A stretch of 64,000 nt of DNA from Escherichia coli (GTDB lineage: Bacteria; Pseudomonadota; Gammaproteobacteria; Enterobacterales; Enterobacteriaceae): NCBI RefSeq assembly GCF_003334785.1, contig NZ_QOWV01000002.1; one strand, written 5' to 3'. Below the pieces are notes generated by a model. The model had not been told where the DNA came from. It searched no databases and saw only the letters and a list, made by a program, of their open reading frames with translations. A program made the translations under genes and the position numbers. This document shows positions 8,969-9,292 of this stretch, piece by piece (positions within the stretch are counted from its first letter, which is position 1; each line of letters starts with the position of its first letter).

Positions 8969-9030
8969 TGCTTGGGTCCCCACGCGTTACTTGCGGTAGA
9001 AAAATAAAATTCGGCGCAATTCTAACAGGG

Positions 9031-9046
9031 AAAGCAAACGTTTGCG
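9031..9046. promoter_or_regulatory. PurR operator (pur box) for purMN
   Basis: aaGCAAACGTTTGCga contains the palindromic PurR core GCAAACGTTTGC; lies in the purM-upp divergent spacer upstream of purM. Confidence 0.7.
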
Positions 9047-9243
9047 AGACTGCTTTACACAACCTTTTTGCACGTCTTTTCCCCAGGCGCGCGGCGAAAG
9101 AAGACTTGTGCCAGGGTAAAGGTTAGTTTTCGGATGGAATAATCTTCTTTCATAACCATCTGAATATAAAATAACTTTATCTCAAACCGTTATCATTTTG
9201 ACTAAAGTCAACGAAAAGAATATTGCCGCCTTGAAGAAAGGAG

Positions 9244-9267
9244 GTATAATCCGTCGATTTTTTTTGT
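9244..9267 (+). promoter_or_regulatory. upp promoter -10 (TATAAT) followed by the initially transcribed T-tract (GATTTTTTTTG)
   Basis: TATAAT hexamer then a run of about 8 T ~30 nt upstream of the upp ATG; matches the known UTP-sensitive reiterative-transcription control of upp. Confidence 0.65.
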
Positions 9268-9292
9268 GGCTGCCCCTCAAAGGAGAAAGAGT

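Follow-up and report, generated by a model that had tools for sequence, protein, structure and literature searches.

Two divergent sigma-70 promoters, a PurR operator, a UTP-sensing T tract and an FNR site in the purM-upp spacer of Escherichia coli

The intergenic spacer between purM and upp of Escherichia coli very probably consists of two independent, divergent sigma-70 promoters, each tied to the nucleotide pool of its own operon, with an additional FNR input. It is part of a stretch of 64,000 nt that was analysed as a whole and is referred to here as the window. The three control elements, namely the PurR site of purM, the UTP-sensing T8 tract of upp and the FNR site, have all been published previously and are already known. 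The sequences, both start sites, the in vivo occupancy by PurR and FNR and the conservation of all three elements come from the present analysis or from the data cited below, and the switch between the upp starts G6 and A7 and the poly-U ladders are taken from published biochemistry.

From 8900 to 9400, the window matches E. coli K-12 MG1655 with 100% identity, and 5424 of the 5426 complete genomes of E. coli contain this stretch. Over 8.5 kb around the spacer, one base differs from the MG1655 record NZ_CP032667.1, located at 11594 in hda, where the window has a T and the record an A. Window positions were obtained by subtracting the MG1655 (U00096.2) coordinate from 2,628,187, a conversion that reproduces both published gene starts (PMC3266220). 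In the RefSeq annotation of MG1655, the minus strand carries purN and purM, and the plus strand carries upp, uraA and hda. The coding sequence of purM, the first gene of purMN, extends over 7931..8968 on the minus strand, as given by the RefSeq annotation of the identical MG1655 stretch and the list of open reading frames. The annotated start is the GTG at 8966-8968, and an upstream in-frame GTG at 8983 is the start used in the ORF list. Because purM starts at 8968 and upp begins with an ATG at 9293, the spacer comprises 8969-9292, or 324 bp. A preliminary description of this DNA had delimited a spacer of ~310 bp (8984-9292), in which the upp-side edge is right and the purM-side edge is not, the annotated purM start being 8968 rather than 8983; the sequence elements named there are all present where they had been placed.

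An Rfam scan of 8800-10100 at permissive E-values yielded nothing in the spacer and only sub-threshold matches at a terminator-like hairpin behind upp. This hairpin (AAAGCCGACTTTAAGAGTCGGCTTT plus a T run, 9935-9964) lies in the 85-bp gap between upp and uraA, described as a single operon, and the sub-threshold Rfam leader and sRNA matches at that place are due to it. A weak promoter-like site was seen at 9906-9933. The small ORFs of the spacer (24-34 aa) were rejected as genes; most of them lie in poorly conserved or Escherichia-specific sequence.

On the purM side, a published start-site table gives the transcriptional start site (TSS) at MG1655 position 2,619,175, which corresponds to G 9012 of the window and leads to a 5′ leader of 44 nt (8969..9012, minus strand), whose purM-proximal part proved to be conserved when 52 distinct spacers were aligned. 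The -10 hexamer, read from the sequence, is TAGAAT (9019..9024, minus strand), 7 nt upstream of the TSS; it falls within the 51-mer upstream of the published purM TSS and reaches a cross-genus conservation of 0.8-0.9 or more. The -35 hexamer is likely TCGCAA (9047-9042), overlapped by the PurR operator. This operator, the PUR box TCGCAAACGTTTGCTT (9032..9047, minus strand), spans -20 to -35 of the purM promoter relative to the TSS at 9012 and was recognized by a 12-bp palindrome and by its identity with a ChIP-chip site. The palindromic core, GCAAACGTTTGC at 9034-9045, is perfect over all 12 bp and occurs as a single exact copy in the 64 kb, with 0.03 copies expected and any copy at all in only 3 of 100 shuffles. 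The entire box agrees with the PUR box consensus ACGCAAACGTTTGCGT, with its central CpG, at 14 of 16 positions, and a 40-mer around it is unchanged in 5413 of 5424 E. coli genomes.

In the PurR ChIP-chip table, TCGCAAACGTTTGCTT is entered as the purM-purN site at MG1655 2,619,140-2,619,155, that is, 9047-9032 of the window, with a log2 enrichment of 2.08 in the presence of adenine and 0.98 in its absence. Binding of PurR to the purMN operator in vitro was reported by He et al. (1990, J Bacteriol 172:4555). Moreover, a multicopy clone of the spacer was found to be protective, and deleting AAACGTTTGCTT lessened this protection, for which the authors invoke the titration of PurR (PMC3266220). The PurR operator core that had been noticed on the purM side is therefore borne out, as it is the same as the published ChIP-chip site and is occupied by PurR in vivo. 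It had also been described as oriented toward purM; the assignment to purM holds because the operator overlaps the purM -35 and the promoter spacer, whereas a perfect 12-bp palindrome has no orientation. The view of purMN as a purine salvage unit has to be corrected, as these genes belong to de novo purine synthesis.

Elsewhere in the window, two additional published PurR ChIP sites were confirmed on the minus strand, the purC operator ACGCACACGTTTGCGT at 32378-32393 and the weak yfgO/yfgC (bepA) site CCGGAAGCGATTGCCT at 14329-14344. A perfect FNR consensus, TTGATATATATCAA, is located at 1086-1099, ~130 nt ahead of the ORF for pdeF (yfgF), whose start is at 1227, and the palindrome TTGACCAACGTCAA at 25167-25180 lies within a 479-aa ORF (23915-25354, minus strand).

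On the opposite side of the spacer, a promoter scan returned TATAAT together with TTGCCG as the sole sigma-70-type match in the region. The -35-like hexamer TTGCCG (9223..9228, plus strand) is separated by a 16-bp spacer from the -10 hexamer TATAAT (9245..9250, plus strand), which is followed by the G+C-rich segment CCGTC (9251-9255); the genomic SELEX table for RpoD gives TTGCCG-16-TATAAT for upp-uraA, too. A G and an A sit 6 and 7 nt past TATAAT, directly followed by eight T's (9258..9265, plus strand). The resulting sequence GATTTTTTTTG at 9256-9266, composed of G9256, A9257, T8 and G9266, is identical to the published initially transcribed region of upp-uraA, in which the T8 tract is the template on which UTP-dependent slippage adds extra U's. 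In a published start-site dataset, the upp TSS at 2,618,931 corresponds to G9256 and is covered by 194 reads; the leader is 37 nt long (9256..9292, plus strand) and carries the ribosome binding site AGGAG at 9281-9285. The start therefore lies immediately before the T tract and not downstream of it, where the preliminary description would have counted it as a refutation; the Cappable-seq supplement has no entry at the coordinates expected for this locus.

Bare T8 runs are not rare in the window (8 versus 5.9 expected), so the meaningful feature is the position of this run 7 nt past a perfect -10 hexamer. The composite TATAATNNNNNGATTTTTTT (TATAAT-N5-GAT7) has one exact match in the window, with 0.15 matches expected even if 2 mismatches are allowed. 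The alternative upp starts occupy 9256..9257 on the plus strand: the productive G6 (9256) is the mapped one, and A7 (9257) is reportedly the second, reiterative start. Under low UTP, initiation at G6 is reportedly favoured and the G6 transcripts elongate normally, whereas high UTP is said to favour A7, giving AUUUU transcripts that undergo slippage on the T tract, are extended by extra U's and then released.

The primary papers on this promoter are Tu and Turnbough (1997, J Bacteriol 179:6665) and Cheng, Dylla and Turnbough (2001, J Bacteriol 183:221), the latter announcing in its title the requirement of a long T.A tract for reiterative transcription at upp. AUUUUn ladders at high UTP and a loss of pyrimidine regulation upon shortening of the tract are reportedly part of the published biochemistry and genetics. 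Elsewhere in the literature, 5′-GATTTTTTTTG is given for the upp-uraA region, where long reiterative RNAs are made without ever reverting to normal transcription, and a paper from 2025 states that excess UTP stimulates start-site switching at upp, followed by non-productive reiterative initiation. The earlier reading of a TATAAT followed by an initially transcribed sequence that supports UTP-dependent reiterative transcription thus matches the published upp-uraA mechanism.

A third signal in the spacer, absent from the preliminary description, is the FNR-type palindrome TTGACTAAAGTCAA (9198..9211), an exact inverted repeat and a published FNR ChIP target. Its half-sites, TTGAC and GTCAA, are perfectly symmetric and match TTGAT-N4-ATCAA at 8 of 10 half-site positions. 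Relative to the upp start G9256, the centre of the palindrome (9204.5) lies at -51.5, and relative to the purM start at -192.5. FNR activates from -41.5 at class II promoters and from -61.5, -71.5 and beyond at class I promoters, and the position of -51.5 falls into neither class. A second, class II promoter starting near 9246 was considered, but inspection by eye revealed no convincing -10 hexamer for it. The FNR ChIP-chip study of Grainger et al. (2007, PMC1802558) lists the target ‘upp/purM’ with a motif at -51.5/-192.5, and an FNR ChIP-seq peak at 2,619,000 was assigned to upp as ‘activated by FNR in NO2-’, the effect on upp in this compilation being confined to nitrite-grown cells. Liu et al. 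(2011, PMC3266220) gave the FNR site a position 61.5 nt ahead of the start of upp, which conflicts with the source cited there, PMC1802558, and with the sequence, both of which give -51.5.

The conservation of these elements was followed by a scan with the Upp protein using one genome per species, which yielded 80 loci within the Enterobacterales, ranging from Escherichia to Yersinia, Erwinia, Hafnia and Edwardsiella. The arrangement TATAAT-N5-N-A-T(7-9) is present in all 80 species, with G at position 6 in 79 of them. The T tract invariably starts 8 nt past the -10 hexamer (80/80), while the remaining leader is variable; the tract comprises eight T's in 46 species, seven in 25 and nine in 9. 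Because the register of the -10, the GA and the T7-9 run is fixed in 80 species and only the tract length varies, the UTP sensor is evidently ancient in this order and its register is maintained by selection. The 5-nt segment after TATAAT takes just four forms across the 80 species (CCGGC, CCCGC, CTCGC and CCGTC), and directly upstream of the -10, AAA-G/A-GCGG is almost invariant across genera (9236-9255 of the window and orthologous positions). The invariance flanking the -10 exceeds that of the usual promoter spacer or discriminator and may have to do with the choice of start site or with stringent control. The TGGCGC...GCGG found upstream of the -10 in other genera was considered as a sigma-54 promoter and rejected, as by eye the GG-N10-GC spacing is not matched.

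The sole species among the 80 without G6 is E. albertii, in which a T replaces it in strain NBRC 107761 (TATAATCCGTCTATTTTTTTTG; locus L002, ~1964); upp expression or regulation should therefore change in this species under the published model. Between the T tract and the upp ATG lie 34-44 nt of leader, with three exceptions, all upstream of position 2001 of their loci: 91 nt in the Serratia and Symbiopectobacterium loci L044 and L055 and 172 nt in a Brenneria locus (L070). The extra sequence in these three is G+C-rich and may fold.

The PurR box, in the form A[AG]GCAAACGTTTGCGA, occurs in nearly all loci in which purM is within reach, mostly 53-67 nt from the purM start and 98-249 nt from it in some enlarged spacers. 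At 9032-9047, conservation is ~0.9 at 14 of 16 positions, and the outer positions 9032 and 9033 vary. A palindrome with at least 8 of 10 FNR half-site matches lies at -52.5/-53.5 from A7 in 61 of the 80 species and is missing mainly from the Pantoea/Erwinia group; the half-sites in other genera match at 10/10 positions in 26 species and at 9/10 in 32. Across the 52 distinct spacers, conservation peaks at the purM leader, at the purM -10 plus PurR box (9017-9048), at the FNR half-sites, at 9236-9266 and at the upp ribosome binding site.

The middle of the spacer is a different matter. The segment 9075..9196 is an Escherichia-specific filler, A+T-rich in its upp-proximal half, with a G+C content of 27% at 9120-9209, and ~100 nt of it are missing from most other genera: the alignment gap fraction is ~0.9 at 9075-9120 and 9137-9171 and 0.7-0.9 at ~9181-9196. 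Accordingly, the spacer measures 324 bp in E. coli and E. albertii versus ~210-240 bp in most genera. In the alignment, no conserved elements were found in the filler from 9075 to 9196. A genomic SELEX table flags H-NS for this spacer and predicts an extra promoter in the filler toward purM (ATGATA-17-TATTTT). A 10-nt direct repeat, spaced 103 nt apart, had prompted the idea that the filler arose by duplication of the purM leader or promoter, which was rejected because the best local alignment score, 15, was reached by 171 of 500 shuffles.

Whether the two promoters form one unit can be judged from loci in which they have come apart. The separation between purM and upp is at least 1.85 kb in Citrobacter, Enterobacter, Kluyvera, Raoultella, Superficieibacter and others (loci L004-L008, L009, L012, L013, L017, L028-L032, L036-L039, L042, L043, L046, L047, L050 and L058). 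In two examined loci, the intervening gene encodes a GH1 6-phospho-beta-glucosidase and is oriented like upp (L009, 358-1788; L037, 355-1818); an NCBIfam test of the gene in L009 gave NF007154 with 995 bits. The PurR box stays beside purM in all five split loci that have purM within reach, and upp in those five has no PurR-like box (≤3 mismatches) within 200 nt, while the FNR site and the T tract remain with upp in all those split loci. Since each element stays with its own gene, the controls of purM and upp are separable neighbours and not an integrated unit. In E. coli itself, the operator is 175 bp from the upp -35. With this distance, and with a 1.9-kb gene in between in many genera, the statement that the purine and pyrimidine signals are packed back to back was an overstatement.

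The independence of the two modules may nonetheless be incomplete, because uraA responds to adenine and to the deletion of purR: its mRNA fell 17.6-fold with adenine and differed 2.04-fold in the purR deletion, an effect called ‘direct or indirect’ by the authors. It is conceivable, if unlikely, that the spacer is a three-input node with some cross-talk, in which FNR biases the choice between G6 and A7 or PurR directly aids the strong repression of upp-uraA by adenine. Such a bias exerted by FNR would, if real, adjust the UTP sensor during anaerobiosis or in the presence of nitrite.

The more specific proposal that the single operator at 9032-9047 acts both ways, so that PurR also represses upp-uraA and purine status gates uracil salvage, draws on the same uraA responses, on a PurR ChIP-chip enriched region (2,618,847-2,619,484) that covers the whole spacer and on the compact spacers of most genera, in which the PurR box is only ~155-180 nt from the upp ATG. 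We nevertheless regard it as distinctly unlikely. The box lies 175 bp upstream of the upp -35 without a second box for looping, and Escherichia has inserted ~100 unrelated nt between box and upp promoter. The behaviour of the split loci, where the box stays with purM and upp has none within 200 nt, speaks against it as well. Furthermore, the published ChIP table gives the site to purM-purN only, and a 2-fold change in uraA could easily stem from altered nucleotide pools.

It is highly improbable that the T8 run is an incidental part of the leader, serving as a spacer or an A/U-rich translation enhancer, and that upp is mainly under the control of FNR or H-NS. Such runs are indeed common in the window, and FNR and possibly H-NS bind the spacer, but a tract whose register is kept in 80 of 80 species amid an otherwise varying leader, and which directly follows the published TSS, does not look incidental; moreover, two studies devoted to this promoter describe reiterative transcription that depends on UTP and needs a long T.A tract. 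Equally far-fetched is a LacI-family protein other than PurR as the physiological ligand of GCAAACGTTTGC, for instance RbsR as a relative with a similar CG-centred operator. Operators of this family share a AAACGTTT-type core, such that sequence alone cannot name the protein, but PurR is cross-linked to the operator in vivo with a signal that responds to adenine, the purM ChIP signal has in effect already been shown to be lost when purR is deleted, deletion of the box weakened the protection by the clone, attributed to PurR titration (PMC3266220), and purC (32378-32393) and other pur genes carry 16-mers of the same class.

In the arrangement that we favour, two independent promoters plus an FNR input, which no observation contradicts, a PurR dimer carrying hypoxanthine or guanine would bind the 16-bp operator at 9032-9047. 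As the operator covers the -35 hexamer and the promoter spacer, bound PurR would shut out RNA polymerase, presumably by steric exclusion, and de novo purine synthesis would be repressed when purines are plentiful. On the other side, transcription at low UTP would start at G9256, and the GAUUUU... transcript would elongate, allowing the uracil salvage enzyme and the uracil permease to be made. At high UTP, the start at A9257 would be preferred; the weak AUUUU:DNA hybrid would slip backwards on the T8 tract, U's would be added repeatedly, and the AUUUUn products would be released before reaching upp, a control for which no repressor protein would be needed. FNR bound to the palindrome at 9198-9211, centred at -51.5 of upp, would add an oxygen or nitrite input to this promoter.

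Both halves of the spacer coincide with known systems. The upp promoter is the same DNA as the described upp-uraA promoter of E. coli K-12 (TATAAT, CCGTC, GATTTTTTTTG and the start G6) without any difference and is therefore its type specimen, and the purMN operator is the identical 16-mer at the same genome position as the described one (He et al. 1990; Cho et al. 2011, NAR 39:6456), again without a difference. Closest in mechanism are codBA and pyrBI. The promoter of codBA (5′-ATTTTTTG) shares with upp the UTP-sensitive start-site switching and the non-productive reiterative transcription on a T run, but it has T6 instead of T8 and a different set of start sites. PurR acts on codBA, as codA and codB are listed as affected by it; upp, in contrast, lacks its own PurR box. 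The codBA operon serves nucleobase salvage and transport. At the pyrBI promoter (5′-AATTTG), high UTP likewise drives slippage during initiation on a T run with release of the products; in contrast to upp, UTP acts directly on a single start without any switching between starts, and the run has only three T's. At pyrBI, slippage operates together with a downstream attenuator, of which none is known at upp. With FNR-dependent promoters, the upp region shares the inverted repeat of the TTGAT-N4-ATCAA type and its occupation by FNR in vivo; it differs in the position of the site at -51.5 and, in E. coli, in the half-sites TTGAC/GTCAA, while many other genera have the perfect consensus.

The region thus matters as a textbook case and not as a discovery, the purMN operator being a classic PurR site. 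The comparative result, a UTP sensor kept in 80 species and an unusual FNR position at -51.5/-52.5, is a modest addition that leaves the understanding of the locus unchanged. The upp promoter remains one of the founding examples of repressor-free control, in which RNA polymerase itself reads the UTP level through start-site choice and slippage.
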